64,000 nucleotides of DNA, taken from positions 868,001-932,000 of the forward strand of contig RSEE01000015.1 in NCBI GenBank assembly GCA_003971905.1, in the 5' to 3' direction. The position numbers were made by a program, and so were the translations under genes. The notes beneath the pieces are model-generated. The model was not told the origin of the DNA and did no database searches. It was given only the letters and a program-made list of their open reading frames with translations. Positions 26,301-56,371 of this stretch are shown here, one piece after another (the first letter of the stretch is position 1; the number at the start of each line of letters is the position of its first letter). The DNA is from Moniliella sp. 'wahieum'. Taxonomy: Eukaryota.

Positions 26301-26616
26301 CGGAAGTGTGCTGTAGGGCCCAAGGGTGCCGACGGGGAAGTCAGACGAGGAAAGTCATTTCTATTGTGGGGGAGGTCCTGGGTGATTCCGCAGATCGCTT
26401 CCGGCATATCGAGGCACAGAGGCTGTCTTGCCGACTAAAAAAAAGCGAGCGGATGTGACAGGCGCTGTGCCTGGGGCAGAGCGGGCAGAGCAGGGCAGGG
26501 CCAATGTAAGACCTGGCGCCGGGCGGGCATGCCAGCCAAGCGCGGCATGTGATGTTCATGGGTGATATATGATAGTTGGCGAGCGCGAGGGACAGTCGCC
26601 GGCGACGGCACGACAG

Positions 26617-27222: not shown

Positions 27223-27483
27223 CGCGCGGTAGCCACTATAGAGCAATCGAATCGCTGCGAGCCTCTCGTCTGTCGATTGTCGATCATCACTGTTTATGAA
27301 GCGATGCCACTATACGCTTATGATCGCCATAGGAATGGTCACATATTTCTTTTCCCTCACAGACGGTACCTGCCCCACCCCCACCTCCGCACCCCATCAA
27401 GAATTATTATCCCCTCTCCACCACTCCTCAACATTGCTCCCTTTGCCTCGGCCCCCTTTCTCTCTCGCCTCACACTGGTCGAC

Positions 27484-30356: not shown

Positions 30357-30420
30357 GTGATCGATGATCGATGATCGATGATCGAATGAATCCAAGATCT
30401 AAAAGATCTAATCAATCAAC
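30357..30420. repeat. (ATCGAT-g)x3-4 plus an AGATCT pair in a divergent promoter
   Basis: ATCGAT at 30360, 30367 and 30374; agatctaaaagatct follows. Confidence 0.9.
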
Positions 30421-32111: not shown

Positions 32112-32672
32112 CTAGCAGCTTCTCAACGTCGCCCTTGATCGACTCAGGAGAAGTGGTAGGGGCATAGCGAGCATAGACCTTGCCTTGCCGGCCACAAGGA
32201 ACTTGGTAAAGTTCCACACGATCCGCTCCCCCAGCACGCCCTTCTTCTCGTGCTTGAGGAACTTGAACACCGGGTTCGTGTCGTTCCCGTTTACATCGCT
32301 ATCAGAAAGGTGGTCAGCCTCCGGCAGTGGGTTGGCCATGAGCCAAGAAGAGAAGGATCAGGACACACAGAATTAGGATAAAGACATACTCTTGTTGACC
32401 ATGGGGAACTGAACACCATAGTTGAGCTTGCAGAAGGCACCAGTGTCTTCATCATCCTGAGGGTTTTGGGACCCAAATTGGTTGCTGGGGAACCCAATCA
32501 CCTCCAGCCCTTGGTCTTTGTACTCAGCGTACAGCTTCTCAAGCCCATCGAGTTGAGGTGTGAAACCACACTTGGTCGCCGAATTGAAGATGATCAAGAC
32601 CTTGCCCTTGGCCTGGGCAAAGTCGTATGTGCTCTTCTTCCAAGGCACAGAGAGGGAGTACAGCTCGGACAT
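32112..32672 (-). CDS. GPX: Glutathione/thioredoxin peroxidase (fungal Cys-GPx, Gpx2/Hyr1 family)
   Basis: '[18 protein letters not shown]', '[11 protein letters not shown]', '[11 protein letters not shown]', an intron, then '[13 protein letters not shown]' and '[10 protein letters not shown]'. Confidence 0.93.
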
Positions 32673-32898
32673 TGCACGCAGACAGTGGGTGAGAGGGGGG
32701 TGGCTGAGAATAGGTGGAGGTGGAGGTGGAGGTGGAGGGAGGGAAGCAGGGAAGGTGGACGTTGACGGGATTGGACCTGAGGGTGGGCCGTTTGGCTATA
32801 TATCGTTGTGTTCGCCTGCGGCCTCCAGATCGCCGAAGGGCCAATTTCGACTGATTTGTTGCGTATGGCATCGAAATGTGAAATGTAACTTGTAAATT

Positions 32899-32955
32899 GT
32901 GAAACGTGAAACGTCATGCATGTCACGGTGCATGATGCATGATGCATGCGTGATG
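32899..32955. repeat. ATGCAT-g-ATGCAT array in the GPx promoter
   Basis: ATGCAT at 32935 and 32942, with flanking degenerate units. Confidence 0.85.
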
Positions 32956-33792: not shown

Positions 33793-36700
33793 CTAGAGGT
33801 CAGAGGTCGCCTCAAAGATCTGGGTTGAGGATAAGGTCTGGATAGGAAGAAAAGGAACGAAAAGGGTGAGTGGATGGACTAGTAGGAAAAATGCTAGAAA
33901 ATACATACACTCGACAATCCGGGCATTGGTGCCCATCTGTGCCAATTCTTGGGCGGTTGTGAGCGAACGGAAAAGGGTGGGACCAAATATGGTCCCTAGG
34001 TTTCGTGCTGTCATCAGGTTTTCATTGTGGGCTTGGTGGACGCGATTGAGATGGCGCATCAGCAGGGCCATCGAAGCTTGGTGTACAGGGGGAAGCATAC
34101 GAACCACCTCTTTCACCTCACTCACGTCAGTCACCCCCAAATCGAGAAGCGACGAGAGTTGAGCTTGGGTGGAGGGGGGAATGAGCGGTACGGGCAAAGC
34201 ACGTAAAAAGTTCTTGAGCACTGACCCAATTGCATCCGGATCGTTGAACCGACTCGAATCTAGCAGATCAAATTCGCACCCTCGCTCAAAGAGGGAGGTG
34301 ATGAGCGTTACTTGACCGGATCCACCCGTCTGGCGATAGATCCCTTCAGACCGTAGTGCGGTGGCCTCAATGGCCTCGATACATTTTGATAGCATGTGCG
34401 GAATCACATTCCCTTCGAGGGCAGCCTGGATGGAGAGGTCGCAACCCAGCGTGCACCCGACCTCGTGCTTCCCTGGGGATACTTCTCCTTGCCCTCCTTC
34501 TCCTCCGACAGGGGCAGCAAGTGGGGAAGCAACAGAACGGATGCTGTCCTCTTTTTCGCTGGATTGACATATGGAAATGTGCCCCCCCACACAGCGCTGG
34601 TGAATCGCGCCAAGGCACAACGTGCATCGCAATTCGGTCTGGCCCCACATGCTCCGCTGGCAGGCCATGCATCGAGTTGGACGGACTGCGGTAAAGGAAT
34701 GAAAATCGTGCCCTCCCCTGGGGGGAGGAGGCAAACCAAATGTCAAACCGCTCCACTCGTAGCGTGTGCCCAACGGTAGATCTGACGACACCGACCCATT
34801 AGGATGCGAAGAAACTAGGTTGGGCATCGAATCGCCCTCTTGAGAGTAGAGTCCCCGCCAATGGAAAGTGAAGTGGAAGAACGGCTCGGCTGGTGCAGGT
34901 CCGATCCTCGAGCCGAATACAGAGAGAGACCAGAGGGAGAATGTGGCATGCCCGGGCGTAGAGGTGGAGGGAATGCCGTGGGGCTCGCCCGCTGCCCACC
35001 CGTGCCACGCATCGATCGGAACATTTTCCCTCCTTCTTGAGAGAATGTATCGGGAAAGGGGGAAGGAAAAGGATAGGAAAGTGATGAGACTTCTCCCTCC
35101 GAAGGCTCAGGAGCGAGCGCAATGTTTGCCTTGACACCTTGCGATGACTCAGCGAACGCTGCTCCTCTTCTCTCTCACGCTGGAGCGAAGAGAGGGACAG
35201 AGACAAGGCTTCCTTCTCCTGCAACAAAGTTGCCTTGTTCTGTTCCAGCTCTGCCATCTCGATCCGCATGGCGTCCCGCTGTTCCACGAGCGAATTCAAC
35301 TCAGCGCGGAAGGTGAGGGAAACATGCTCGAGCCGACGAGACAAGTTGCGCCCCAGTTCCACGGGAGGGTAGGAACCACCCATGCCCACTCCTTTAGATT
35401 CCCTAGTTTCCGCTCGGGCGGTCAGCTCGGCCAGTTCCGACGCTTTGAGCTCACAAGAGGTCTGTAGGTGCGCCATACCTTTCTCCAACTCTTGAAGCTG
35501 CGCGTACGCCTTGGCCTCGTGCATTCGATACCACTCCCGATGGCTTGTTTCTTGCATCTGCTCCTTGGATCGTTGGTGCTTCAATGCTTGCACCTCGGCC
35601 CGCAACAAAGCCACCTCGCTCCCCGTCAATACCGATCCATAATCCGTTCTTTTTCGGACGCGGCCGAGGGGAGGAGCTTCAGTAGACTAACGGCAATGTC
35701 GAACGGAAGGGAAACCGTGACACCGTCTGAAGAAGCCAAGACAGACCGCAAAACCGATTGGGGGGCTGACCAGAGCCACACGCAACAGGCACCATCATCG
35801 GGTCACACGAACCTTTGTTGTCATCGGTGCGAGAAGGGACATTGGCTGGGAACAGAGAGTAACGTTGGGCTCGTTCGGCTCGTTCGGCGTGAGAGGCGAG
35901 ATACGTATGGATGTAGTCCCCTTCTCCTTCGCTCCCAAGCTGAGATTCGTGGTGGAGGAACCCGTGGTATATGGGGCAGAGGAGATGGAGGTAGCGGGGC
36001 TTTCCTTGTCTGATACCGAGGTGGGCGATCCTGGCTCAAGGGTGTACCTGGCGGGTAGCCGTACCTTTTTTACCCGGGGGCGGAGGATACGAAGAGGCTG
36101 CGTGCGGGGGCACCGGTCGATAGTCGCGAAAAGTTCTCGGCACTGGATATGGGGCGTAGAGCAGGGTCCGGGATAGGAACGAGACGACCTTGGCTGATGG
36201 GCCTTGACTCTTCAACCGAAATGCCCTGGCAAGGTAATGGGCTGACAGATGGCTCTTTTTGTAAGGAACGGGGACGCTCGAGGGATGAGGAAGGGGAAGC
36301 AGGTGTACGGGTAGGAGCAGGTGCATGTGCCGGGTTGGAAGGCCAGCTGGACTTGGAAGCCAATGAGGATCCAGAAGTGATGGAGAGTTTTCTCTCTTCG
36401 ACGCAAGGGCAATGCGTGCGAGGCTGACTTCAATGAGGCAGTGGGCTCATGGATGGCCGTCTGGGTAAAATCCGCTTCAGTGGATGGGACATGGAACGCG
36501 GTTGCACCCACTGGCAGCTGACCCACCTCCGGCCCGGAGGCCGAAATTCCGGATGCCCCACGCTTCTTCTTTGCTGCGTCTGCAAGTGAGGCAGTGAGGG
36601 TTGTGGCTGCTCCTGCTGCTGTTGATGTAGTAGCTTTCGTAGTTGTTGTTTCTGGCGCTTGCGGCTGCGCGCTGTCGGTTCTGATTGGCGATACGCTGTT

Positions 36701-37255
36701 CGTGACAGGGCATGCAGTAGATACCGCTGGACGCCTTGGCAAAGACAAGAGCAGTGATAGGTTGGTGGCAGATGCGGCAGAGAAAGCAGGCGGCATGGTA
36801 GGAATCCTCGCCGGCCATGATCGCATCCTCGTCCGTGATGGGTTTGCGACAGATTTGGCATGCACACGCACAGCTGGAACATACCAGCTGGTCATTGCTC
36901 AAGATCAGTGCTTCATCGCTGGGGTTTGCGGGGCGGCGAGCGCACAGCGTACATCTTAGACACTCCGGTGCCATCCCATTCGTAAAAGAGACCAGTTGCC
37001 CTTCCTTGACCAAGGCCTGGTGGCATCCACCGCACTGTTTCTCCTCTTCTCCAGACCCAGGTGCTACATGCTGGTAGGGGCCATCGAGTGGTTGTGGTTG
37101 TGGCTGTGGCTGCCAACGGTGTAAGGACGTGTGGTTTCCGTTAGCTTCTTCGGCTCCGATGGCTGCGCTAGCGCTGGCGGTTGTGCTTCCGCTTCGGTTT
37201 CGCCCTCCACTGGTCCTGGCACTGGGCCAACACCAGCGTCGCTGAGGGAGCCCAT
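33793..37255 (-). CDS. Rho GTPase-activating protein with LIM, coiled-coil, C1 and RhoGAP domains (Rga1/Rga2-like)
   Basis: LIM 'QCGGCHQ..ECLRCTLC..CSSC' and 'CQICRKPI..YHAACFLCRIC..IYCMPCH'. Coiled coil at 35100-35600. C1 'HDF..RPTRCMACQRSMWG..ELRC..C..HQRC'. RhoGAP 'EGIYRQTG' and 'LKNFLRALPVPL..NLMTARNLGTIFGPTL'. Confidence 0.9.
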
Positions 37256-37707
37256 GAAGCTCGCCGCGGGAGGAAATGATGGAGATGGGGTGGGAGGCGA
37301 GATGAAGGCGAGATGACGCAAGGACGAGAGCGAAAGCAAGTTAGTGCAGCCGGTCAATGCCGCTTGACGTATCTCCACACTTCTCACTTCCTGAATCTAA
37401 TCGTCCCTTCTCCCAAATAAGGTACGCGCCTCCCGCGCCTCTGTCCGACAAGACTGGGCCGACCGTCGGGACCTGACTGCTTACTATGTAAACGGGCAGT
37501 AGCCCGCAGGCACGCCTAATCTGGCCCGATACACACTGCCCCCGTACGCCGACGCCTGTGGGATCTGCGTTTTGATATATAGTACTTGCGCATCCTTGCG
37601 TCCAAAGCAGCAGAAGGGACGTCCGCAGCACGTTTGATGCTCGTAGGCCACGCATTCTGCCCCGCACTTTCCGCCTCCGGTCTGCCCGCAATTCCGCATT
37701 GTACTGT

Positions 37708-37728
37708 CCCCCCCCCCCCCCCCCCCCC
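37708..37728. repeat. Poly-C21 tract (G21 on the minus strand)
   Basis: Read directly, about 450 bp upstream of the RhoGAP start. Confidence 0.9.
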
Positions 37729-38813
37729 TTGTTAGCCTGGGCATCTTCTTTCATCCGCAAATGTCGCCCCGCACCAAAAAAAGGCATCATCTGCCATCAT
37801 GCATCCTTCATAACATCATTCCACATCCCATACGCATCGAATCCATCCCCATATCTTGTGCTAACACACCGATCACAATTAACGATTTCATCGATAATCT
37901 CTGATTGATAAGTCGATCAGGTCGCGGTCAACGGTCAACACCAGTTTAAAGGTGTTTGAGAGGCGTTTCTCGCGTTTATGGCTTTCGTGCATCCGTAGTA
38001 GTTCATCACTATGGACACTGGAGTATTCCATTTGAGTATAGTAAGGAAGAGTTACAGAAGAGTACTCCATAATTATATTGCTAGAGAGCTTTGCACCACA
38101 ACGTAATCGAGATGGACCGCCGGGCCCTCTGCTATAACTTTTCACTTTCTTCTCCTTGAGAAGGCCGCATGTGGTAGATGAATCCCCCGGGTGGGGAATG
38201 CGACCCACTGAGATTGTTCTGGGGTAGTCTATTATACACAACATTATGACTACCATAAGAGAATCATCATATTATTGTTTCCTGTGAAGATGGGGGCTGC
38301 TGCTTTTTTGGCCACTATACGACACAATCACAAACGTTGGGATTTATTAATAGTCTGTGTATGGCCGTGGGTGTTATACGTCTGGCCTCTGCATCCTTCA
38401 ATTTTCCGATGAGTGCTGCTATGCAGATTCGCATTTCCAGTAGGGCCGCACATTGCTACCCTCTGTCGAGTGTGACATATGTGACTGGAGCGCGGCGCCG
38501 GTTGAGAGAGAAAGCACCGTATATATTTTGGGGCCATCGAGGGTGTCTGGTCATCACACGACTGAGGGATGGAGGGGCCGTAATTTATGAAGGAGAGTGA
38601 CTAGTGATGGCATCAATTATGCTGCGTATCATATGCATACCCACATGAACATCATTTCGACATCGACAAAACGACATGGAGAAATGAATCATCGCCCTAA
38701 CAAAGATACAATCTATTCTCTCTATTCCTCAGCGCCCTCACCTCGGTTTCACAACTATCGTGATGCGGGCGAAGGTTGTCCATAAAAGACGCGCGTGACT
38801 TGGTGATATAGCC

Positions 38814-40345
38814 GTAAGCGCGTAACGCGTAGGCTTTCATGCAGCTTCCAGCTTCCAGCTTGAAGCTTGAAGCTTTTAGCTCCTCAGGCCGGCGTCACGC
38901 GTCAGGCCTGACCTCAGGCCTCAGGCTGAGGTTTTAAGAAAGCTCCAATGCAGTGGAAAGCTTGGACGCATGATGCATGACGGATTTAAAGAGGCGAACA
39001 GGTGACATTATGGTAGCCGTGGCATCAGTAGAGTCACTAGTCACATGTGATGCGGTGTGGGTGAACCTGCGGTTGCTTCGGCCAGACGGGAAGCTGAAAA
39101 GGCGGTCAAGCTTCAAGCTTCAAGCTTCAAGCTTCTAGTGACCGGTGACCGGTCTGACCAGTGGGGCTAAGGAGTGGCTAGTGAGCTAGTGAGCTAGTGA
39201 GCTAGTAAGGCCTGAGGCCCGTGAGCGCCCTGAGCCTCAGGCCTCACTAGCACTGAGGTACTGAGGCCTCGGGGCTGAGGCTATGAGGACAATTAACGTT
39301 TAGCAATTGCTGAGCTGTGGCCTGTGACATGTGACACGCGTGACATATCGGTGATGTGATGTGAATTGTTAGACACTGCTCCACACTGGGCCCTGGCACG
39401 GCCAATGCAGGCCGCAGCACAGGGGCAGTGGAGGGGTGTGGCCCCAAGACGAAGCTACACGGTGCGACCATGTTATATCCGGGCGTTTTTGTAAAACCTT
39501 TGTAGACACAAACGCCTCGCACTCCCTGCTCTGACTGATGGGGTGCTGCCTGGTGCTGCCCATCCGCCTGAGGTTCAGGCCTCAGGCTGAACGGCTGAAC
39601 GTTGAACGTTGTTGAACTTCAACGCTGCAGTTCAACGGTTCAGCGCTGAGCCGCTGAACGTTATCCGAGGGGACAGTCTCGCGTTGGGCCCGCTGGGAGT
39701 GGTTGAATGTTAAGTGCGTTGAGAGTTGTTGGCTGCTCTTTTTACTGTTGGCCTTGTGCACTACACATGACGCGCTGCTTCTGGGGGGTTGGTCTGTTCT
39801 GGCCCAGCCACATGCACAACGATAATGCACTTCCTGCCGTTTTTGCTTTGGGTTGGAAAAGCTGTGGAAGCTAGTTGAAACGTGTCTTGTCGACGGTTAG
39901 CTTACTATTGCTATACCGAAACGATGCCCACTGACAGAGCGTGTATTAATGTGCGCGAGGTGCCCACTGGCATCGCAGAAGTCTCCTCGAGTCTCTCTGT
40001 CTGTCCATTGCTATTCTCGCCTTTTCCTCTCAAATCTCAGTTTTTAATAGTGAAGTCACTCCAGTCACTAGTCACTCAGTCTCTGAGTTCTGAGTTCTGA
40101 GTACTCATCGATCATCACTCCCCGAACCCACCCCCTGCCATTAACCATTCGCCACCCACTCTGAAGCGGGACTCGGCGCTGAGCCTCAGCGCTGAGGTTC
40201 TGTAGTGCTCAACAGCCTGAGACCTCTGGGCGCCTGTGAACGTCCCGGCCTGAGCGCCTGAGCGTTGAACCGTTGAACGCCGAACACCCTTTAACAAGCT
40301 TAAAGCTTCAGGCTTCAAGCTTCACGCTTCAAGCTTCACGCCTTC
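38814..40345. repeat. Largest cluster of A-N4-T palindrome arrays (at least 9 different cores)
   Basis: ACGCGT about 38825; AAGCTT 38863 and 38870; AGGCCT; ATGCAT; ACTAGT-c-ACATGT at 39036; AAGCTT x4 at 39108-39134; ACCGGT 39141 and 39148; (agctagtg)x3; AACGTT 39598 and 39605; AGCGCT; AGTACT-c-ATCGAT about 40100; AAGCTT run 40297-40340. Confidence 0.9.
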
Positions 40346-40881
40346 GGCCTCACTATAGTCACTGGTTACTAGCCTAAGGCTCAACTGGAGTTCCCCCCGG
40401 ACATATACACCCGGTGTTTGCCACAACGACATAGTTGCGTGTCAGTTTGCTTGGGTTCAGGCCCAGTACAACCCGCCGCCACCATCACTCTGCTCATATA
40501 CCCCCGGGCAGTCACCGGCGTGCTGTACCCCCCCCTCTTGTCCCGCCTCCTTTCCGTCCCGTCGGCCTACTCTGCCTTCCTCTGACACAGTCTCCCAATT
40601 CCCTCATTGTCTCGCTCTCCAGCCTCCTCGTTATTGGCTCACCCACGGCTGGTCCGTTGCTGCTCGCCTCCTTTCCTCCTCCATCCCTCTCAAGACGACG
40701 ACGTGCCCATTCAACGCTCGACCTCTCGTGCTGTCTTCATTCTTACGGTGCACCGCGCCTCGCTCTCAGCTCTCAACTTTCAGCTCTTAATTCTTCCACC
40801 TGCCTCATTGCGTTCTCGCTGGGCGGCTTCCATTTTCCATGGACCCCCTTGCCCTTCGCATCGCGCGCCTCAGAGACGGAG

Positions 40882-42774
40882 ATGCTCTGGCCATCAGGCG
40901 CTGCGGATTCTGCCTCCACCATCTCCCTGACTCCCGCTCAATCTCCCCTCACAGCCCAACTCGCGCCATTCCCTTCCTCCATATCCACTGCACCCATTCC
41001 CATCACCTCGCCTGTGCCTTCAGGCCTCCCCTTTGCCCATCCGGGAGCCTTGCCTTCCCAACCCCCCCCCAGCCAAATGACTCCAGTGGCCCGGCTCCCT
41101 TGGTCCCGGCCTCGTCATCCCTGTCGCCTCATCTCACAGTAACCCTCACGCCATGGCCTGTGTCGCCGCCCTTGACTGGTTCATCCCTCACCCCGCCCCG
41201 CCACCCCCAGTTGGGCCCCGGGATGCTGGATCCAATTCCAGGGGCTGTTTCTCCATCCCAGCTCTTTAACCCTCAACCATCCTCGTCAACATCTCTCGCT
41301 CTCGCACCCACAGTCTTCACCTCCCCGGATGCCCCTGCTTTTCCCCGTGCCCCCCAACACAGCACCCACATCACTCTCATCTGCTACGACGTATCGTCAC
41401 CTCGTTCTCCACCCCCAGATGCCCGCGCCATCCCATTCTGGTCGGCTAAACCGTATTCCCTCCCGCCCCTCCCGTCCGTATCCTCAACCACTCCGTTCTG
41501 GCAGCATTGGGTCTTCCACCTCCTCTCTTTCCCCTACGATGAACAACGTCGGTTTGGGCCTTTCGGGCTCTCCCTATCCCTCTCTCGCGGCTATGGGATC
41601 CTCGGGCCCGATAAGAACCGGTGCAGGAGTGTCCCCGTCACCAAATTTAGCAAGTTTGGGCTCATTTGCTTCGGATTTAACACCCCTTCGGTACTTCTGC
41701 ATTCATCAGGTGGTGGGAAGACCTATGTTCCTGGTTCTAGCACTTTTCACAACAGTGAGGTATGTACCCACCTCCACCCTCCATTCGGGTGGTTTGTCCG
41801 TTGACTGGCCTCGAGCTGACTGATTTGTGTCAATCAATAATAGCTGTGGATTAACGACAAGCTACCCCTTCTACGCGAGGGAAGAGATTACGACTTGCAG
41901 GCGGCCAAATCCGCACCATCGGCTTGCATATCTATTGAGATTGAGCAGAGTGGAAAGACACCTCCTGTTGTGCAGAGGGAAATCAGTCCACCTCTTCTAT
42001 GTCCGGGGGTATCGAGGCCTCACATCCTACCCATACCGTGCTCATGGCCCCAGTACCTTCCGTGAGGGTGCACTGGGCTAAGGAGCTTGTTTCTCAACTG
42101 GTTCGCAAATCTGTGCCTCTTTCTCCTCCACACCAGCAGCCGGACCCAGGGGATTCTAGCAAACGGTCCATCGCCCGCTCCGCCGGTAAACTTTCTTTCC
42201 TCTTGCCAGACGTGTCCGATTGGGACGAGCTGAAGGATGAGCTGGTCGCTGCCGGGCCATTTAAGACGGATCGAATTTGGGAACGGACGGTGGTTAGCGG
42301 GGAAAGCGAGACGAGCACATTGAGTACTCCTCCTGTCTTACCTGCTGCCGTTCACGCGAATCAGCACCGATCGTGGCACCCACGACGATGTTGGACCAAC
42401 ATCAAGGCTCCAACTCTTCACCTGACCAGCGAAAGTGTCAACCGGGTGGTAAGTCGGCTCGCTGCGTCTGTCGCACCCGAATCGCAGCCAAGGTGCGTTC
42501 CGACCGTCGGGGTGTCCAGGTGACCATCACCGACCGTCTGGGCCACTGCATCGCCCCCACGGACCGCAAAGAACGGGCAATGGTGAGCAAATTTGTTCAT
42601 CATCTGGCCGCCTTGGGTGTTCCTCCAGCCCAAGTCCATTCCCTGATTGCTCACCTGTCCCAAGATGCCGAAAGCCTCTCGCCCCAAGATCGAGCATTTT
42701 ACCTCGAGTGGCTTCCTTCGGGCAAGTACTGCCAAGTCTTGCGTGCCGCTTCAGTACGACAGCATAGGCCTTGA
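40882..42774 (+). CDS. Hypothetical protein, possibly with a C-terminal WRKY/GCM1-like (MULE-derived) zinc domain
   Basis: Long Pro/Ser-rich ORFs and an intron GTATGT(41760)...CTGAC...TAG(41843). C-terminal 'RKCQPGGKSARCVCRTRIAAK...VTITDRLGHC...LAALGVPPAQVHSLI'. Confidence 0.5.
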
Positions 42775-44644
42775 TCCTTCACTGGATCAGGTCGAGATTG
42801 CCTTGGCCTCTCTCATCGTACCAATGGTGCACTGGAGCAGGGAGTCACTGCCCCTCTGCCTGCATCTGCCTTTTGGGGCAGCGCTCCTGGCAAACACTGG
42901 GCGTATAACATATTCCCCCCTGCAATGGAGGCCGTCAAAAGCCCCCTTCTTTCTATTGGGTCTGTCTTTCTATATTGGTCGATTTCCGCATTTCGTCATC
43001 CTTGCATCTCTCGTACCCCTCTCCACCTTCCACGTCGCCCTATTGCATTGGCACTTGACTCCTGCTCGGGGGCGACTATTCAACCCACACAGGCTGGCAC
43101 CACACCTTCGTCTATGTCCCCGGTTGGACATATACGAGCGCCATATGCTCTTCACGATGCTTGGGATCTGTGCCTGTTGCTCCTTCCCCCCCTGTCCCCC
43201 GGTAACATCCTGTCACCTTTTTTCCGGTTCCATGTTCAACGTTCAACGACATCAACAACCGTTTTCTTTTTCTTTTAACGTTTCCTTCATCGCTACTTCA
43301 AGATTCCCATCCTTCCTGTTTCCCCCTCCCCCTCAATCAGAATACAAGAAAGTAAGTAACAGCTCTTCACATTCCTTCGAGCTTCACATTGCTTCACGTT
43401 GCTTGCCTTTACTTTCTTTGTCATGATCACTGTTTTCAGTTGATCTCTCTTTCCTCTGCACTTTTTTGCTGAGGATAACAATCATTACTTTCTCACGATG
43501 ATCGGACTACATGTGGAAGTAGCGGATCGCGATGGACCTTTCTGTTCTACTTTGTATCGTCCTCCCTGTCATAAAGGCGTTGGTTGGACTATCATGGTTG
43601 GGCGACCGTGGCCCAGGTGGCAATTACATATCTCGCAGCATGCTCGGAATGCTACGCAGGCCCCCTTTTCTCTCATAGTATCTTCCACAATCTGCAAGTT
43701 GGAAAGGCCCACTGCCCTAATTCTGAGTGTGAGACTACTGCGTAGGATTGGTGAGACGCGGTAAAATGCAATCGTATCTTATTCTTCCGCTTCACAGCAG
43801 CAGTGCGTGGGTGGACAAATTGAAACGCCCCCTCGTCACATGCAGTCTCTCTTTTCGCTTTTGGCTTGCCACATGTCACATCCTACAACAGTTGGAACCA
43901 GTCTGTCCCCCGTCTCACGCGTAGGCAGATCTATATATATCTTCCTTACATATCAGAGTGCCTGGTGTCAGTTGCGAGTACTCCTTTGTACATATCACAG
44001 TCAGGGGCTAATAAGACGAAGGGAGACCATAATCAAGACGAGGTCTGTCGGGAGATGTAATAGTAGCAATCCTTTGTGGGAAAACTATGAGTGCAATAGC
44101 AGAGGACTGCATAATGGAGCACCGCAGAAGATCAGGGAAAGAGAGGCAACGCACATGTGAGACAGAGACTTTTTGGAAATGGGAGCGATATCATATATCA
44201 CAAACTATGACACCAATTACTATACCCCTCTTTTTCGTGCCAAGGTGCCCCGTATGTTATAACTTTGTCCAAGAAGGGCTGCACTTTCGATCCCACCCCC
44301 CGGCTGCAAATGGAACGTCGACAAGGTGTATTATTCTCACCTAGTAGATGCGCGCGTACCGTATAAACTGTTGGGCTTATATCCGACCGGGCGAAACGAT
44401 ATCCCATCAAGCGTTGAAATCAAACGCAGAGAGGGAGTGGTATTAGACCCGTTTTGAAGCTTCTGATGTATACCAACAAGTTGTTTCTCTCTATAAATAG
44501 CCGTGTAGTTTTCAATGGATTGATTATTGAATTACTCATCGGGAAAGAGGGGTATATATGTACGCGACGGATCGATGGGGGAGATGATGGGGACCTCACA
44601 AAAGAGGCCCCTGTGAGGAAGAGAGTCGGGTGACGACGGTGTGC

Positions 44645-44870
44645 GTTGACGACGTTCAAGTTGAACTTCAAGCTTCAAGCTTCAAGCTTGAACGTTGAAC
44701 GTTGACGGTCATACGCTGAGGGCCATGCTGTCGGCGTTTCGTCAGTACAATACGCCCGTGATCGACATAGCGCACGACGCTTCGATATGCTCTTTGGGCG
44801 CTAAGGGATATAATGCCTAAGGGGTCTAAGGCCTAAGGGGACTATATAATAAGGCCTAAGGCCTATTAAG
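44645..44870. repeat. Array AAGCTT-c-AAGCTT-c-AAGCTT-g-AACGTT-g-AACGTT, plus AGGCCT-a-AGGCCT
   Basis: Units at 44670, 44677, 44684, 44691 and 44698; AGGCCT at 44852 and 44859. Confidence 0.92.
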
Positions 44871-45499: not shown

Positions 45500-47700
45500 G
45501 TAGTACACGGGAAAGGAAATAAGGGCGCGTGCGGCCGAAGCACCCCTCAGCAGATCGATTTCACCCGCTCCCATTTAAAACAACATTAACCGCGGCTTAA
45601 CCACATAGTACTATGGGTGCGCGCCTCTCACCTCGCATTATGGCCGACGAGCAAGGGCAACTTACTGATTATCATCCCTTCCTTTGTTACGGAACGAAGA
45701 AGATGAGGCCGGCGGTGTTTTCAATCCATAGAGTTAAGAGCTCCATAATGCTTCCGTGCTGGAAGATGGTATGGTATTCCGACTGCTCCAACTGCTATGT
45801 ATTCTGTGAGAAGGTGATGTCGATGAACCGCATCGAAAGACTCACATCAGTTAGGGGTTTCCAGTGATATAAGCATATTGTTCGCCGTCTTGGAGGCATA
45901 CTACCGACTTTTGCGTGGTCCGCGTCATCCTGATCAAGGGGGAAAACAACGGATATTGAGTATGGCCCTCACAGGTACTTGACGGTTCCCTTTTGTGATT
46001 ACGCTTGCTGATGCAACGTTCGAAGCCGCTCCTTTTCCCTGCGTTCCACAGGCGTTTGTGCGACGGTTTCCTTTTTTACGACACCGCGTCCGCCGATACC
46101 CAAAACAATTGTGAGACGACCTGTGGGTGAATCAACACACCGATCATCCCAGCTGTTAGGCTGAAGTCTACAGACGAAGCGTTCTCCCCCCCACACAAGT
46201 TCCATGCCTGAACACCGTGCCGGTCTTTGAGCCATAAAAAGAGGCCACTTTGGTCAAATTCTCCTGTAGTTTATAGGGCGAAATTCGCAAACCAAGGCTT
46301 GCGCCTCCTTCTCGCGGATACTCTATGAGATATAATCCCTCTGCAATGGTACGTTGTACTGTAGAAGCGATGTATTATACATGTCAGAGGTTGTAGGCAG
46401 AGACTATATTCTGGGGAGGGTACCGGTCCCAATCCAATATAGCGCTTCATGAGTGGTACCAACGCTTGTTTACGCAGTAAATATACAGGTCCCCAGAACT
46501 CGGCTGACGGCATCATCCTGATCATGCACCGAGGAAAGGATGCGTTGATGGCTCTCAGTATACTGTGCAGTTTTGGTATCCTACGTTCCGTCAGTTGGAA
46601 CTGTATCGGAAGAATATGGGCCGCCATAGCTTTTTCCCTTAATAGAACTAGCCTGTATACTCCCGGCGATTGAGCTTCCCATGTAACAGTCGGGACTAGA
46701 CGAGGGAGACCAAGGTCCTGTCAGAGACGGAGGGGATGGCAAGAAAGTGGAGAGGAAACGGAAAAAAGGCATAGGGCAGGGAACAGAAAAAAAAAAGGAA
46801 GGAATGAACAAGTGGTACACGGGATGCAGAAGTGGAAATTGGAGCGAGCTTGGTCATTCGATGAGACCCATGCTCCATCTTGTCAATAGGTACGGTATCA
46901 TACTTCTCTCCCTTTTCATTGCCTCTTCTGCTCGCCACTAGAGAAAAAATAAAATGTGTAACCACAGTCTGTTTTCGGATTCATCTTCTGTGTGGATTTT
47001 TGTCAACCACCCCGTATATATTAACCCCCGCAAGATGAACGGTTAGGTTTAGACGTAGCGTTCCCCCTGTCCCAGCCTTCTTAAGTCTGCCAATGAAATG
47101 GACGTTGTATAGGAGTAAGGCGGGATCTATTCCAACACAAGATTAAGGTCCTCCTGAGACTTTCCTCAAAAATTGGGGGCGAGTTTCGACTGCTTACCAT
47201 ACGGCGCCGTTGCTGATACGAAAGTTGAAGGTCTCTTTTTATATTGGGCGCGGTTGCGGTTTCTTATACAAAAACTCCCTTGGAACGCCGGGAGAAGGAG
47301 CTGCTTCGGCTGCTTGAACAAGCAGAATACGACAAGAACGCCATGTACCAAAGACGCACTCAAGAGCCGTTCTTCCTCCTGGTTTTGACGACGCGAGGAT
47401 ACTACGGCACCAAGACAGCGGGCAAGTTGTTTGCGCATTGGGAGGATTTGGCTACTAAGTCTCAGTGGAAATGGTTCCTCGCTCGGATGTCAACCACGTT
47501 TTCATCCGTGTCCACACGCGCTTCCTAGGGTACGGGACCGGATGGCGAGAAACGGAGGGGTGATATCCTGGCGTTAACCCTGGTTCCTTAACCTTGGTGG
47601 CGCTTCCAAGTAACCCCCGCAAGATGAACGGTTAGGTTTAGAAGTAGCGTTCCCCCTGTCCCTCTGTCTTAAGCTCGTCTCTGTCAATGAAATGGACGCG
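45500..47700 (+). mobile_element. Decayed non-LTR retrotransposon relic(s), 3' RLE end, with a duplicated ~85-bp segment
   Basis: ORF 47244-47528 'EQAEYDKNAMY..EPFFLLVLTTRG..LFAHW..WKWFLARMS' resembles the C-terminus of RLE LINEs (K..Y...F.P.V....G). The region looks lower in GC than the genes and has no intact ORF. Left boundary uncertain. Confidence 0.45.
47022..47698 (+). repeat. Direct repeat pair 47022-47104 and 47611-47698
   Basis: First 52 nt match at 51/52 (taacccccgcaagatgaacggttaggtttaga[c/a]gtagcgttccccctgtccc). Similarity continues with indels to caatgaaatggacg. Confidence 0.95.
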
Positions 47701-48260
47701 ATCTGTTTTTGCCTCCAATATACCGAGACATGATAAAACTTGATAAATGCAACGTTCAACACTGTCGTGGCACGTGATCCAGTATACTAGGCGCGAGCAT
47801 TCAACAATTGAATCGAATGTACCGTCACATGTCACACGTCACCCGTTTCTAACGCAACACAGATCCGAGCGACTAGCATCCTGCAAAAGCATTTCGGTGG
47901 CTCTCCCTCTCTGCCACGGCGGGTTTGATGGACTGGGTGCTCTTCCGCGTGTCCATCAAGCTAGTATCCAAGGGCAGGGCCGCAGGGGTAAGAACAGCAA
48001 GTTGCGCCCAGCATCCAACTGCACGAACTGGTTTGAGATGGTGTAGTGCTGAATCCGAGAGCATGTAGGTTCCACGTAGCCTAAAATTACAATTGGTTGG
48101 TCTTCCGCTCAGGTTGACCAATCTAGTGCGGAAAAATAGGACATCCAGCTCCCTGCCTTGGCGCAGTTTGATTCGCGCGGCACGTTACCACTTTTGGCCA
48201 TCCCTACACCTTACCCACAACCACCTCGCACCCCCGCTTGGTGCTCACTTGTTCCGCATC

Positions 48261-49960
48261 ATGACATCTCCTCCTGCGGAGCGCACGTCTTTCTCCCTGG
48301 GTCACCCGCATCGCTTGGGTCCCCTGGCCTGGTGGCGTCACCAGCCTCGCCTCGGGCGATGGACAGTCTGGGCGAAACGTCGGCCGAGGGACTGCGCCAA
48401 GAACTCCTGCTGGCACGTCGGGAACGCGACGAGTATGAAGCGAAGTACAAGGGGTTGCTGGGTAAATTGACCCAAATGCGTGCTACGCTTGGAGAGCGGT
48501 TACAACGTGACGCGGTACGTCCTACTCTTTCCCTGCCGGATGGAGAGCGGCTAATATGGAACGTTGCAGGAGGAGTGGAGGAGCGTGAAAGCAAGTTGAC
48601 GCGTTGACTGGCCAAGTAATAGTTTGGACCGAAACAGTCAGACACTGCAAGGAGGAAATCAAGACGAGCAATGCCGAGGCCGAGCGATTGCATGCTGAGT
48701 TGCAGCAGGCCAAGCAGGCCCCCGCGCCGGCCCAGAGGCGGACAAGGGGCATGTTCTCGCCTTGGAGCGCAGGCTGCGCGAGGTGCTTGAAGAGTTGGAG
48801 CAGCTCAAGATCACCGTCGAGACGTGGGAACCCACAACCCAATCGAGCGGGCTTACGTACAGAGCTGAGGAGGCCCTTTTGGCCATGAGAGAAAGCAAAT
48901 CCACTGCTGAAGCGTTTGCTGCCAACTTGCAGACGCAACTTGCGGCCGACAGCAAACCACTCGTGAACTCCAGGATGTGCTGGCGGAATTCGAGGCGTCA
49001 AAGATGGACGAGGTGACTCGGGCGTCGAATGAGGCCCAGGAGGAGCTCACGAAACTTACCGCTGAGCTGCAGGAACAAAGGAAGCTTGCCGAGGAGGCGA
49101 GGTACGTACTTCCGTCTTGCCACCACTTGTGATGGAACTAGCACTGACCTTTGCATATATGAGCAGAAACAACGAGACGAATGTGCGATGCAGCGAGCAA
49201 GAGCAAAGCATTGGAACAGGAAATTAAGGAGAGGAATCTGCTATCGGCAAGTTAGGCATGAGGGTACGTTCTCTCCTCTGGCACTCTCTCCTGGCCAAAT
49301 TACCTACTAACCTATTTTTACCCTGTAGCGGTCATCCTCAACGAACACCTGACCGAAGCCTTGCGGCGCTTGCGCACCGAGTCGTCGGAAAACAACGTTG
49401 ATCGCCGGCTCGTAACCAACCTGTTCTCCAATTCCTCAGCCCCCCCCGACGGGAAGCGGTTCGAAATGCTCAACGTCATGGCATCTGTCCTGGGCTGGAC
49501 CGATGAGGAACGCGAAACGGCCGGGATAGCACGGCGGGGTCACAACCTCCCACCGCCGGGTAAGCGCCAGGGCCCTCAACGTGCCTCGGAGGACGAGCCA
49601 TCGGATGCACACAATGAGGTATGTTTTCTTTCTCCCCCTCCATCATATGCGCATCATGGCGACGCAGGTGGTTTTCGGTGCTTAGTGTTGACCCTGCCTC
49701 TCTCAGTCTTTACTCGCATGTTTGTCCAGTTCTTGCTACGCGAAGCGGATAGCGGTTCTGCGCCCAACGGCAAGAATACACCAGAAAAGGCATAGCTGCA
49801 TTCGTTCCTCTATCAATGAGATTTTGGGCTTGTTTGGGACCTGGTATTGTCCCTCTGGCCTCACCCCCCCACCCCCTTTCTAATCGGTGCCTGTTCCCAC
49901 CGGTCATCTTCCATGGCTGTGCATTTGGCCTCGGATTGCGTATTCGCCCCCGCCCAGTAA
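48261..49960 (+). CDS. RUD3: GRAB-domain golgin (Rud3/GMAP-210-like coiled-coil protein)
   Basis: 'YKGLLGKLTQMRATLGERLQRDA' and a coiled coil. 'AVILNEHLTEALRRLR..NVDRRLVTNLF..RFEML..MASVLGWTDEERE.AG', then 'F.RMFVQFLL.EA'. Four canonical introns start at 48515, 49102, 49264 and 49619. End approximate. Confidence 0.85.
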
Positions 49961-50858: not shown

Positions 50859-53621
50859 ATGGAACAACCCTCCCTTAGTGCCTGGTCGCGACCGCCAGCG
50901 AGAAAGCTCCCTTCGGCATACGAGCGCACCCATACCGCCTGCGCCGCGGCAGATCTGCCGCTCCCCGGTCTGCCTCAATGTGTGCTCCTTGCCGGCCCAG
51001 GGGCAGCAACAAGCACCGCACACGTACTACATGCTCTCGGGGGCAGCCCCCTTGCACCCCTGATATCTCCTCAAATGCCCACCATGTATGGTTTTCACCG
51101 CTTGCCGACAACACCATTTTGGTCGGAAGATGCAACTGCTCGTCCTCTGTTGGTTCGTTTGCAGCCATCTGAAGATACGTCCATGGCTCCGCGTCTGTCC
51201 TTACTGGCGTCGACTCGATGGAGCCAGACCAAGTGTGGGCGCGCATCAAGGCGGAGCGCTCGCATCCTCCACAGGAAGGCGACCCTCTAGCTGCCTCACC
51301 TTATGCGCCCCCGACTTGCCTCATCTGCAGCTGGTCGAGCTCCCTGCCCTAATTGTTCCGGACGAGCAGGCCTCTTCTCTCCAGCTACGACGGTCGCGTC
51401 CGGCAACGTTGGAAGCAAGGTGTCTCCTGAAGATCTGGTGGCGCAAGCTCGTCGTTCTTTGGCCTTGTCGTACGCTTCGGAGCCGGATGCAGTTCTTTGC
51501 GTTGTTTTATCCCCATGGGAGCGGGCCGAGACTAGTCCCGCCGTCCAGTTGGCTCTCGAAGTGGACCCAAAGGGGGACAGAACGGTTGGAGTGATCCCCT
51601 TTGCCATGTCGTCTGCAGGGAGATACAACCTTCCGTTCCTGGGGCGCCCCAGTTCCCCCTTTAAGAACGGTACCATCTACCTCCCCATCGCGCAAGCGGG
51701 TGGGTTCGAATCTAGGGCGCTCCCCGGTCTGGCTACGTGGCAACAGCATTCTGTCTCCTTTTCTTCTTCTTGGCTGGGCAGAGGTGCGGCGGGCTGCGTT
51801 GGTGGATGCAGTGGCTCGGACTTTGCTGAACCGCTTTCAATGTCGGGTCCCAGCATTGACAGCGCGATTGAGCGCGTTGGTAGCTCAGACGCAGCACCAA
51901 CTTGCGCGGGATGCCCCCTCCCCCGTCTCTGCCTGTTGACACGTTTCGACGGCCGCGCACGCAGGATGAAGAAGAGAGGACACTGGTTGGATCAGACTGG
52001 GACAACGCTAAGGTGGGGAAAGCGTCCCCACCCCATTCACCTTCTTTATCCATTGCCCCTTCCCTTACTCCTTCCGGGGCAACTGCCTCTGTTGTAGGCC
52101 CCACAAGGGTGAGTGCCTCATCCCCAATCGGATCAGAGGCAGCTCAACTGGTGCTCTCTCTCACAACCCAGTTTGCTTCGGATGTGGTGGCCTGCATTGA
52201 GGGGGAAGGCGGGGCCAGGATCTATCGTACTTTTGTCGACTCTTTCCATCAAGCTCTTCTTGATACCATTCCTTCCCCTCATCTTCAGCAGTGCGACGAG
52301 GGGCTGCCTCCTGGCAACCCCGACCCTGAGTGGGACGAAGCGTCGGGGCTATCCACCCGGACCATTCGTACCGCCTTGCGTAACGCTGCCGGTCCAAGAC
52401 CGGGGCTCTTTGTCCCAGACCAAGCATTCCAATTGCTCGTCAAGCCACAACTGCATCGCCTCCACTTCCCGGCTCAACAATGTGTGGAAAGTGTGTTTGA
52501 GGAATTGGTTCGCATTGCTCACGTCTCGGCTCGACCCGTACGTCATTCCGCTATACTACCCCCGCACTGAACAAAAAAACGTACTAACCCCCGTGTCCCA
52601 GGAGCTTGCTCGCTTTCCTCATCTACGCACCGCGCTAACGGATCGCGTTGACCTAATGCTGACAGAACGACGAGGGCCTACAGCCGAGTACATTAGGAAC
52701 CTCGTCGACCTCCATTCCGCATATATCAAGGTTGACCATCCTGCTTTCGTTCGCGCGAGAGAAGCGATTTTTCATCCTCCTTTGCCCCACCTGTTAAGCC
52801 CGCGTCCAAACCCAACCTTACCCACACCACAAACCGCAGCCCGACCATGACGCCCCCTCGCCCTTCTGTACAGGAGGAAGAAGGCCACCCTCCCCTTTCC
52901 CGTGCCCAAACCGTGCCTACGATCCCCGTGTCCCCTCTGATCGGTGCCTTCCGATGGAGGCGAACGCCCACACCCACTCCGCCTGCCAAGCCGACGCCTA
53001 CCAAGGCACGAACACGGTCCAGCACCCAGAGTCTCTCCTCTCCTCCCATCCCTCCTGTGTCTGGTCATCACCGCGGGGCGACAGTGGCGCCGTGCCGACG
53101 GTGATTCTTCCGCCTCCAGCTGGGTCCGCTCCGCAGCTGCTCCCGCCCCCCCCACCGTCCGAAGGATTTTTCTCTCGCTTCTTGGGGGGCAGCGAGGACC
53201 GGCATCGGCCGTCCTCGGTGCAGGACGAAGCACGCTCGTCCTCCCCTGGCCCTGCTGCACCCCAAGGTTCAATCGAGTCGGAAAGCGTGCCAGCCCAAGC
53301 GGAGAAGGTGCAGCCTAGTCGAAGGAAGAGTTGGTGCGCGCGTTAGTCTTGGCTTACCTAGCCCTGGCACGGGAGGTGGTGGAGGACACGGTGCCCAAGG
53401 CCATCATGCACCTTCTTGTCCACGCGGCCACAGAGGCGATGGAGACGCGGTTGGTGCAGGCGCTGTACTGTGCTTCGCCAGAGCGAGAGGTGCCGCTCCT
53501 CCATCCGGCCTCGTTGGGCCGTTTGCTGGAGGAGGACGAAGCGGCAGTACAGCGCGCATCGAGGCGCGTGCCCGGCTGGAGACCTACCAGCACGCGCTCC
53601 AGCAGATTGCGCGTGAACTAA
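50859..53621 (+). CDS. Dnm1/Drp1-like dynamin-related protein with degenerate GTPase motifs
   Basis: Stalk 'GGARIY..F...IRTALRNAAGPRPGLFVPDQAFQLLVKPQ..CVESVFEEL' and 'ELARFPHL..ERRGPT..AYI.VDHP.F'. GED 'LVRALVLAY..EVVEDTVPKAIMHLLV..RLVQALY'. G-domain scaffold 'LPQ', 'TARPL', 'EVDPKGDRTVGV'. Intron 52538-52601. Confidence 0.88.
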
Positions 53622-54318: not shown

Positions 54319-56371
54319 ATGGGTCCCTGGCGGCGTGCTGTTACCGCCCTGGCCCTGGCCATCGCCGCTGCCTCCTCCACCCCCGCCCTCGCCACCACCT
54401 CCAGCGTCAGCCTCTCGCCCGCCCTCAATGCCAGCAACGCCGGCTCCACCCTGTCCCAGACGCTCCTCCCCTCCTTTGCCGGTGTGGGCATCGAACCAAG
54501 CAACGTGCTGGCCTTCACGGGCACCGACACGGTCACGTCACCCCTTACATACCAACTCCTCAGCAACCTCGGCGCATACACCGGCGTCCCCCGCATCTGC
54601 GTCTCGGCGGCAACACTGGCGACAACATGCTCTATGACGACGTGGCTTCCACCTCCGCCACGCTTCAGACCAATGCCAGTGGCAGTACGACGTCACGCTG
54701 GTACTACGGAAATGGTCTCTTGGCCGCCGTTGACCGGTTGCCCGCCGGCACCCCCATCACATTTGGCCTCAACTTGGCCTACAATGGATCCGATGCCATC
54801 CCGCGCATTGTAGAGCAGGCCGCGGCCGTGTTGGACAATCTGCACAATGTCAAAATTGCCGGTTTTGAGGTGGGCAACGAACCGGACTTGTACGTCACCA
54901 ACCAGTACCGCCCCGCTGGCTACACCGAGCAAACTATGGGGCAGAGTGGATTGCCCGTGTCCAGGCGATCCACACGCAGGTCCTTGCTCCGCGCAACAAG
55001 TCCTCCAATTTCTTTGAGGCTGCGGTCACTGCCACTACGGCCGACAAAACGGTCACCCTACCGCATTTCGAACTTGGTACAGGACACCAATGGCGTTGCC
55101 ACGGGCAACGGCATCTACGTGGCTGGCCCAACCAACACTATCTTGTACGTTTTGCTTCCTGATCGGCCGAGCGCCGTACGTGCCAATCTGGGTCTGACAG
55201 ATGATCTATGTACATGCAGTATTACATTGGCGTCTCCAACTTCCCCATCACGGTCGATTGGCTGCTTGACTTTCAGAATCCCAAAATCAACTTACCGAGT
55301 GGATCGGTCAAGCGCAGCAGGCCCAGCAGATCGGTCGCCCTTACTACCTCCGTGAGATGGGCTCCATCGGACCCGAGGGAATTCAAGGTATCTCGGACAC
55401 GTTTGCCAACACGCTGTGGACCTTCAACTTCTTCCTCTATGCCGCTACGGTGCAGATGAACTCGGTGCAGATGCATATGACCCAAACCTCCTATTCTTCC
55501 CCCTGGCAACCTATCTATGCCAACGGGGTTCAGCCGCATGTGCGCTCGTCTTACTATGCCTATGCTGCAATTGCCCAAGTTATCGGCGCCCAGTGCAACA
55601 CCCGGGTTGCTTCGATTTCCATGGGCACGGTGCCCGCTGGCTACACTGGTCGCCTGGTCGCCTACTCTATTTACGCAGGCAACTCCCTCACTGGCTTGGT
55701 TCTAATCAACTCGCAAACGAGCAACCAAACCAACCCCACAGGCAACAGTGTCAGCTTCACCTTCTCTCTGCCTTCCCTGGCTGGCAAGACATTTTACCTT
55801 TCTCACCTCACGGCGGCAGGCACAGATGCCACGACGAATACGACGTGGAATGGCGTGTCGTTCGAGACGCGCTCAGATGGCAAGCCCCAACCTGTGGCCA
55901 ACAACACTGTTGACAGCGTCACGGCCAATTCGAGTGGTGCCGTGACAATTACCGTGCCGGACGGACGGCGGTGGTGGCCAACATTGGGTCCCAGCTCGGG
56001 TCCAACACCAGCGTCAATCAGAACAACTGTGCCGCGCTGAGTCAGACGGGCGAAGGGCCCGATGCCAATCCGTCTGGCTCCCAAGGCGGTCCCGCGCCGA
56101 CGTTTAGTTCGACCCAGTCTCCAGCAAACACCATGGATTGACAACTGGCGCAATCGTCGCGATTGCCGTGGCGGTACCATGTGGCGTGTTGGCCATCTTG
56201 GCTGTCGCTGGTGTGATCGTTTCTGCCTCTGCCGCCGAAGGAGGCGCAACGGTGGTGCAGCCAGTGGCATGCACTCCAAGTTGCACGGAGGAGAGGACTG
56301 AGGGATGTGACGCTTCAAGCAGATTCGGCACTGGATCGCCCGCCTACGGCTTCCCAGCTCACCTCACATGA
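54319..56371 (+). CDS. Glycoside hydrolase family 79 (beta-glucuronidase-like), signal peptide plus C-terminal TM anchor
   Basis: Signal peptide MGPWRRAVTALALAIAAA. 'GVGIE', 'R.GGNTGD', 'TFGLNL', acid/base 'FEVGNEPDLY', nucleophile 'YLREMGS', and 'GISDTFANTLW..F.LYAA'. TM 'GAIVAIAVAVPCGVLAILAV'. Confidence 0.88.

Follow-up and report, generated by a model that had tools for sequence, protein, structure and literature searches.

A short array at positions 44668-44705 of this DNA keeps a period of exactly seven bases, and partway along it the palindromic core of its unit is replaced by a different palindrome. The question that this locus raises is how a tandem repeat can change its sequence while holding on to its symmetry and its register, and whether the process behind it is slippage, substitution, joining of arrays, or something else. 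We addressed it in the window, which here means the whole 64-kb stretch of DNA that was analysed, and in heptamer arrays of other origin that served as controls.

The window and its genes

The host DNA of the window is nuclear and basidiomycete-like, and the arrays sit in the gaps between its genes. The Pfam-supported reading frames are eukaryotic and broken into pieces:

2987-4155, minus strand, amino-acid permease
13348-15294, minus strand, APSES/ankyrin
19137-19820, plus strand, DUF1989
23762-24447, plus strand, FAD-binding
27184-29402, plus strand, Per1-like
32376-32795, minus strand, glutathione peroxidase
33796-37340, minus strand, LIM-C1-RhoGAP
49262-49792, plus strand, GRAB
51884-52847, plus strand, dynamin
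55270-56037, plus strand, GH79
62703-63581, minus strand, DUF2235

The closest named relatives are the basidiomycetes Tilletia, Gymnopus and Calocera, at 40-50% identity. The amino-acid permease piece is 47-50% identical to Agaricomycotina proteins and 80-83% identical to contigs, and the dynamin piece, used as a query, returned a single weak match. Searches of the 64-kb window for tRNA genes and for Rfam families found none of either.

Several other features of the window were recorded. Over the 4 kb at 40001-44000, which hold several plus-strand reading frames without a Pfam match, the GC skew is strongly negative (-0.32 and -0.15), as is the AT skew. A homopolymer of 21 C lies at 37708-37728, and a GGTAGT hexamer array of 15.5 copies, different in kind from the heptamer family, at 16663-16757. 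Two period-7 arrays, GAAATGT and GTGAAAC, lie at 32873-32914 between the glutathione peroxidase and RhoGAP genes, and fall outside the heptamer family because their cores are non-palindromic. The direct pair 47022-47104 and 47611-47698 (86.5% identity over 89 bases, with a 32-base exact core) is the sole longer dispersed repeat in the window and has no Rfam match. When a dispersed-repeat origin of the arrays was sought by self-BLAST of the window, only this pair and the GGTAGT array were found.

An array that changes its core in register

The flagged array and its surroundings are as follows (arrays are given without strand):

44668-44705, flagged array: six T[CG]A triplets at a spacing of exactly 7, with core AGCT three times and then ACGT twice
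44644-44712, quasi-palindrome around the flagged array: centre at 44686/44687, 19 of 26 arm positions complementary
44827-44836 and 44850-44859, spacer-A version of the same grammar: TAA+GGCC units, just downstream of the flagged array

This parse bears out the initial annotation, which had claimed that the 7-bp phase is kept at 44670 while the core flips from GC to CG. The chain of six triplets is the longest in the window, and chains in simulated sequence (n=200) reach at most 4. Its spacer letter is C three times and then G three times, and the change of spacer and the change of core share one junction, as though two arrays of opposite polarity had been set end to end in register. In the surrounding quasi-palindrome the mismatches fall exactly at the central GC/CG of each unit, where an AACGTT arm faces an AAGCTT arm; the switch at 44670 therefore weakens the pairing of the two arms. 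As single-strand DNA the quasi-palindrome folds at -16 kcal/mol (z -2.66). The exact 34-base array was sought in prokaryote genomes and gave 0 matches.

Immediately to the left of the flagged array, the stretch TCA-AGT-TGA-ACT-TCA is an example of T[CG]A pairs at spacing 6. Such pairs are in excess window-wide (92 against 60.6 expected), and 28 of them have a symmetric 3-base middle against 12.9 expected, 18 of the 28 carrying opposite letters.

Related arrays and clusters occur elsewhere in the window:

5685-5708, in-register switch: AGCT, then ACGT twice, every spacer G
9173-9196, in-register switches: CATG, CGCG, CATG, spacer C, followed by a CACG unit
38895-38911, in-register switch: CGCG to GGCC
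39034-39050, in-register switch: CTAG to CATG
40098-40114, in-register switch: GTAC to TCGA, with four of four core positions different
39106-39129, uniform array: TCA+AGCT three times
30358-30381, uniform array: TGA+TCGA three times
40308-40338, single-mismatch array (ordinary variation): GGCT, AGCT, CGCT, AGCT
7080-9740, intergenic cluster: 17 units, one-kb bins 7-9
25900-27230, intergenic cluster of units and related words, between the FAD-binding-domain gene and the Per1-like gene
38590-40340, densest cluster, upstream of the LIM-RhoGAP gene: bins 38-40 kb hold 26 of the 93 units of T-N-A, palindrome and T-N-A

The further switches cited in the initial annotation (5687, 9175, 39036 and about 40100) are all present and in register; the one at 38895 is a sixth locus, absent from its list. 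All 93 T-N-A units lie within 26 of the 64 one-kb bins, chiefly those at 5, 7-9, 26-27, 38-40 and 44 kb, and none of the 56 runs falls inside a Pfam-matched stretch when run and gene positions are compared by eye. The clusters adjoin genes at the 5' side and at the 3' side, with polarities intermixed.

Two of these regions resemble each other in layout. GGGCA/GAGCA repeats with a common 16-base string occur at 5127-5169 and 26474-26501, and at both loci the same succession follows without a change of strand, first an AAGCTT-type array (5683; 26635) and next an AGGCCT-type array, the latter with an identical 20-base string in the two regions (5759-5778 and 27203-27222). A sensitive comparison of 5000-5900 with 26350-27300 found only short motifs in common. 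At 17657-17666 the unit TCA-GTAC-TCA is flanked on both sides by GTCCCT and resembles an insertion with target duplication; it is the sole case of a 6-base flank duplication among the units inspected by eye.

Enrichment over chance

Expectations for phased pairs were taken from 30 order-3 Markov simulations of the window, and expectations for chains and switches from 100 simulations of order 3 and as many of order 5. The window holds 135 T[CG]A pairs at spacing 7 where 59.4 are expected, and the whole of this excess consists of pairs with a palindromic core, which number 75 against 4.1 expected. Pairs with a non-palindromic core are at chance level. The initial annotation had staked its claim on such cores not occurring at chance frequency, a criterion that is ambiguous as worded: their count is at chance (60 against about 55), their share of all pairs is far below it (44% against about 93%), and the claim in its intended sense is not refuted.

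Chains of at least three phased triplets number 23, against 1.8 expected. Among the 35 neighbouring core pairs in these chains, 12 are the same palindrome twice, 7 are two different palindromes, 6 are a palindrome beside a single-mismatch core, and 10 are other combinations. The tabulation proposed in the initial annotation, palindrome switches against single-mismatch units, gives 7 against 6 in the window, and the simulated means for palindrome-to-different-palindrome junctions are 0 (order 3) and 0.07 (order 5). Six of the seven switches differ at 2 positions and one at 4. Neighbours with different cores at most 42 bases apart are in phase in 14 of 24 cases where 1 in 7 is expected (p = 7e-7), the out-of-phase remainder being offset by 5 or 6 modulo 7. 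With 13 of the 16 possible palindromic tetramers in use as cores, non-palindromic cores at chance and this degree of phasing, the earlier proposal that what persists is symmetry and 7-base phase, not primary sequence, is supported.

The same signal appears without reference to T[CG]A pairs. Among the 60 7-mers with the strongest over-representation, 28 can be read, in some rotation, as one base added to a 6-bp palindrome, against an expected share of about 8%. Odd palindromes with arms of at least 5 number 15 when centred on TCA and 19 when centred on TGA (3.7 and 3.4 expected), and the excess is confined to these two centres, the other 14 centre triplets giving 2-8 against 1.6-6.8 expected. 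That the arrays are a product of chance or a by-product of base composition has next to no probability and is refuted by these counts: the small size of the 64-kb sample speaks for it, and nothing further, and the simulations of order 3 and order 5 never come near what is observed.

The unit is a direct T-N-A repeat around a palindromic tetramer

The unit is T-N-A plus a palindromic tetramer, in which N is mostly C or G and is the same in neighbouring units; it can equally be described as A-N4-T, a palindrome of 6 bp, with one spacer base added. It was defined by a scan in which all forms of [a-N-a'], palindromic tetramer and [a-N-a'] were counted. Same-N T-N-A units total 75 against about 2.1 expected (A 5/0.1, C 34/0.9, G 32/0.9, T 4/0.2, observed over expected), an enrichment of about 20- to 75-fold, and the classes A-N-T, C-N-G and G-N-C were at chance level in the same scan of the window. 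Units with complementary N, which are perfect 10-bp palindromes, show a mild enrichment of only 10 against 2.4 expected. The T[CG]A motif of the initial annotation thus needs both widening and tightening, to T-N-A with the same N directly repeated.

Scoring by hexamers leads to the same unit. Among 80 classes of 6-bp palindrome pairs at distances 6-10, a single one is enriched, A..T followed by A..T at distance 7 (30 against 0.4), and its spacers are C in 13 cases, G in 14, A in 3 and T in 0. Isolated forms T-S-[A..T palindrome]-S-A with the same letter number 34 against 2.0 expected, and those with opposite letters, again perfect palindromes, are at chance (46 against 43.2). The spacer letter is the same on either side of the core in 66 of the 75 palindromic-core T[CG]A units, with C/G polarity flips in the other 9, and it is the same in 39 of 44 single-core runs (p = 1e-7). 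Since same-N forms are enriched and opposite or complementary forms are not comparably so, the object is a direct T-N-A repeat around a self-complementary tetramer, which is polar and not simply a palindrome. Juxtaposed 7-base odd-palindrome units would be expected to produce hybrid cores; none was found in the 23 chains, which indicates that the hexamer plus spacer is the real unit.

As a side observation, T-N-A comprises exactly those triplets that read TAA or TGA on either strand, which may be a coincidence. Three units at period 7 (for example 30358-30381, 39106-39129 and 44668-44705) close every reading frame of one strand with a stop codon. The classes A-N-T, C-N-G and G-N-C hold no stop codon and show no enrichment.

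Heptamer arrays elsewhere

Two control sets were assembled. Metagenome contigs were scanned for seven phased T-S-A triplets, giving at least 124 loci, and prokaryote genomes for three AAGCTT units with C/G spacers, giving at least 121 loci, mostly in Pseudomonas and relatives. Among the metagenome matches listed, 58 of 1742 cores (3.3%) are palindromic, and beside palindromic cores there are 17 single-mismatch neighbours and 0 palindrome switches, so palindromic cores are not favoured in heptamer arrays generally among these at least 124 loci. Among the prokaryote loci listed, neighbours are identical in 364 cases and differ by a single mismatch in 41, and there are 3 switches, all AATT to AGCT; the spacer letter is shared in 497 of 509 units. 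Among the matches listed, Pseudomonas, Stutzerimonas, Zobellella, Halomonas, candidate-phyla bacteria and other taxa commonly carry arrays of 3-12 units of AAGCTT plus C or G.

The ratio of switches to single mismatches is thus 7:6 in the window and 3:58 among the at least 245 control loci (Fisher p = 9e-5), so ordinary heptamer arrays, even those of AAGCTT with C or G, behave otherwise. Taken by set, the listed control arrays give 0:17 and 3:41, which upholds the argument of the initial annotation against simple slippage, also when point mutation is added to it.

Are the switches compensatory?

The initial annotation had read each switch as a pair of coordinated, compensatory substitutions that preserve palindromy. 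This part of its account does not follow from the data, and several observations speak for other routes. First, positions 5687-5708 and 44684-44705 carry an identical 22-base string, the switch included, and the cited examples are therefore not five independent events. An identical 16-base string is also found at 9185-9200 and 47823-47838. The small word vocabulary of these regions means that shared strings are given here without a firm probability. Next, CATG is separated from CGCG by two CpG-site transitions, and at both 9173 and 47825 the unit that follows is CACG, the one-step form, so the switch at 9175 fits stepwise CpG transitions. Finally, at 44670 the core change comes with a polarity flip and with lower complementarity of the arms.

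The switch junctions themselves suggest how register might be kept. The outer core base is retained at 5 of 7 junctions against 20% expected (p = 0.005), so that these 5 share five bases, x-T-S-A-x'. Joining or copying between arrays through such a shared junction would give the register for free.

Run anatomy, decay and folding

The 75 T[CG]A units form 56 runs, of which 44 have a single core, 7 have two, 4 have three, none has four and 1 has five. The tail of this distribution is heavier than geometric, as length-dependent slippage would give. Past the end triplets the period continues, with a match of 0.61 and 0.70 at +1 and +2 and of 0.61 and 0.55 at -1 and -2; further out it drops toward background (0.38 and 0.43 at +3 and +4, 0.29 and 0.30 on the minus side). 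Array edges therefore tend to lie 2 bases past the last triplet, where random boundaries predict otherwise. One-sided flank extension shows no significant strand polarity (21 against 10, p = 0.07). Single units carry 0-3 extra periodic bases in 25 of 39 cases and at least 4 in 14, with at least 2 in 34 of the 39, and they look like shrunken arrays that have fallen below two copies.

Non-palindromic cores are one pair short of a palindrome in 36 of 60 cases against 24 expected. This excess is roughly what erosion of about 40 intact single units would produce, and the decay looks neutral. As single strands, 8 of 10 array stretches fold better than their shuffles (z -2.46 to -5.24); the remaining two have z of -1.65 and +0.32.

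Two routes of origin were tried against this anatomy and rejected. Birth by 7-base target duplication at palindromic sites, as the main route, needs 2 extra periodic bases on both sides of the unit, which are seen in 8 of 39. Deriving the one-sided flanks from decayed full 14-base duplications would call for about 2,000 of these to begin with in the 64 kb.

Proposed explanation

The grammar and its specificity stand as findings, together with the polarity of the direct repeats, the phase, the spectrum of run lengths and the way in which the arrays depart from ordinary heptamer repeats. Our leading reading, offered tentatively and for this one 64-kb window, is that the units are a fold-prone class of microsatellite whose arrays are joined through a shared T-N-A junction. 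Slippage would be the motor: whole units would be gained and lost in arrays by strand slippage. Escape from repair would be the filter, in that only units whose slipped-out strand folds on itself would accumulate; two units would pair as a stem of 5 bp closed by a T-N-A loop, and repair would correct loop-outs of this kind poorly. In yeast heteroduplex DNA, palindromic loops escape mismatch repair. Arrays would then shrink to about 1.4-1.9 copies, at which point slippage would stop and point mutation would erode them. The switches would arise by joining or copying of arrays with different cores through the common x-T-N-A-x' junction, which would amount to microhomology-mediated template switching or unequal exchange, or alternatively, at CG-rich cores, by successive CpG transitions. 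Paired substitutions under selection would not be needed.

Slippage is favoured by the same-N polarity, by the heavy tail of the run lengths and by the resemblance of single units to shrunken arrays, and also by the fact that the AAGCTT plus C/G class expands elsewhere, with runs of at least 3 units at no fewer than 121 prokaryote loci. Joining is favoured by the concurrent change of core and polarity at 44670 and by the presence of arrays of both kinds near each other. The weak point of the filter is specificity. Fold stability alone cannot account for the class, as units with C..G, G..C or T..A outer pairs would fold equally well or better and yet are at chance, and a structure-driven process should favour perfect palindromes, yet the complementary-N forms stand at 10 against 2.4 and the same-N forms at 75 against about 2.1. 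Two further findings count against the reading, namely the low share of palindromic cores (3.3%) in heptamer arrays at the at least 124 metagenome loci and the tendency of array edges to lie 2 bases past the last triplet.

Alternative explanations

It is exactly at this weak point that the main rival does well, namely scars of break repair or transposon excision at T-N-A, although as an origin of the arrays we consider them unlikely. Each event would duplicate a 3-base target and leave a 4-base palindromic filler, adding 7 bases; repeated events at one site would build an array, and a different filler would give an in-register core switch. Footprints of Tc1/mariner elements consist of a target duplication and a palindromic remnant, and T-W-A is the PIF/Harbinger target. 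Scars would account precisely for the restriction to T-N-A, with same-N direct repeats enriched roughly 20- to 50-fold for every N and A-N-T, C-N-G and G-N-C at chance, as well as for perfect palindromes not being the favoured form, and the phase would come automatically. Against them, the fillers are of 13 types used rather evenly, each in 2-8 independent runs, a pattern that a handful of element families could not leave. In 55-70% of runs, against 25% expected, the two bases next to the array carry the period on, which scars at arbitrary T-N-A sites would not bring about, and 34 of 39 single units have at least 2 extra periodic bases. A scan for inverted ends at T[CG]A gave 25 pairs, mostly matches of array with array, against 1-8 for each of 16 control trinucleotides, and was judged to contain no element, so that no inverted-end element stands beside the T[CG]A duplications in the 64-kb window, whose sole longer dispersed repeat is the 47022/47611 pair. 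A related and speculative idea, to which we give a similarly low probability, is a lineage-specific nuclease, recombinase or repair pathway that acts at T-N-A and writes 7-base modules next to existing ones.

Symmetric conversion in situ by short template switching (quasi-palindrome correction) is a rather improbable route. A change in one half of a hexamer would be copied as its reverse complement into the other half, restoring palindromy in one step, and the 1-base spacer would be inverted likewise. It gains from the small size of the switches, 6 of 7 being minimal symmetric changes where random pairs of different palindromic cores would give about 40%, and from the folding of the array stretches and the C/G polarity flips in 9 of 75 units; PMC8794818 describes multibase compensatory changes and perfect stems arising in one event, and PMC8604942 the homogenising of inverted-repeat arms and spacer inversion. 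A 6-bp palindrome, however, lacks room for a loop, so that the partner would be a neighbouring unit; the mutually complementary non-palindromic neighbours that this predicts number 0 among the 23 chains, the change at 44670 lowers the complementarity of the arms, and the perfect palindromes that should be enriched are not the prevalent form (10 against 2.4, with direct repeats at 75 against about 2.1). We also doubt, and strongly, that selection maintains the units as cis-elements. On that view a dimeric protein would bind along arrays of symmetric sites, or the arrays would act as structured DNA or RNA, and both symmetry and spacing would be kept by selection. Operators of bacterial ribbon-helix-helix repressors are arrays of palindrome-like units. 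Few cores are broken (75 intact against about 12 excess near-palindromes), the 93 units cluster in 26 of 64 bins in long intergenic regions beside genes, and composite strings recur at two loci each (22 bases at 5687/44684, 16 bases at 9185/47823), all of which would suit such a role. But no single protein could read 13 different cores, the near-palindrome count fits neutral erosion, and both polarities are mixed, on promoter and terminator sides alike.

Relation to known systems

No description of heptamer arrays of T-N-A plus a palindromic tetramer in fungi was found in the freely accessible full-text literature. The nearest systems in print appear to be bacterial heptamer repeats and template-switch mutation clusters, and what seems new here, judged from sequence, is the grammar within fold-prone short tandem repeats.

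Heptamer repeats of Xanthomonas and Nostoc are described in PMC4692102. Bacterial heptanucleotide repeats (Pseudomonas, Stutzerimonas, Xanthomonas and others) likewise have a 7-base period, short head-to-tail arrays and a constant spacer letter, and one unit, that of the bacterial (AAGCTT+C/G)n arrays, is identical to the window's. They have one unit type per locus, whereas the window has 13 palindromic cores under one grammar in a 64-kb eukaryotic stretch, and at the bacterial and metagenome loci listed (at least 245) neighbours differ by a single mismatch, in 58 cases against 3 palindrome switches. Bacterial hairpin repeats, in which a heptamer array faces a mirror array, are not matched either, the window being eukaryotic with split frames and a single polarity in 66 of 75 units.

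Template-switch mutations are clustered and apparently compensatory, keep self-complementarity and invert spacers, according to PMC8794818, PMC5453318 and PMC8604942. They act to perfect inverted repeats, whereas the window favours a direct T-N-A repeat, and the higher complementarity of nearby inverted arms that marks them is not seen at 44670, where 19 of 26 positions pair and the switch reduces complementarity. Tc1/mariner-like footprints have in common with the arrays a direct repeat of a short strand-symmetric target around a palindrome, with a fixed length per event. The target duplication is thus present in the window, but the few fillers and unrelated flanks of footprints are not: the window has 13 remnant types and flanks that continue the unit, and no element was found in 64 kb. 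In the disease microsatellites (CTG)n/(CAG)n, slipped strands fold and folded slip-outs may escape repair (PMC3310812); unlike the window arrays, these are long and built of triplets, and they need no T-N-A junction. The head-to-tail copies of a microsatellite are found in the window (period-7 rows in TRF; 23 chains against 1.8 expected), while neighbours that differ mostly by single bases are not, with 7 switches against 6 single mismatches. Nor is there the one conserved core of an operator array, the 13 cores occurring in even numbers.

Significance

The specificity of the class points to a molecular step that can be defined, for example the escape of a structure from repair or the action of an enzyme at T-N-A. 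If modules were indeed written at T-N-A, this would be a mutational process so far undescribed, one that spreads strand-symmetric words through the intergenic DNA of the whole genome, and core switches that keep the register would record it directly. For practical purposes the arrays would serve as hypervariable markers, and aligners and motif finders applied to this lineage can be trapped by them. The arrays also provide a case on which to test whether symmetry is selected or mutational, a question usually debated only for RNA stems, and if the grammar holds genome-wide they would be a clean natural experiment on the birth and filtering of short repeats.
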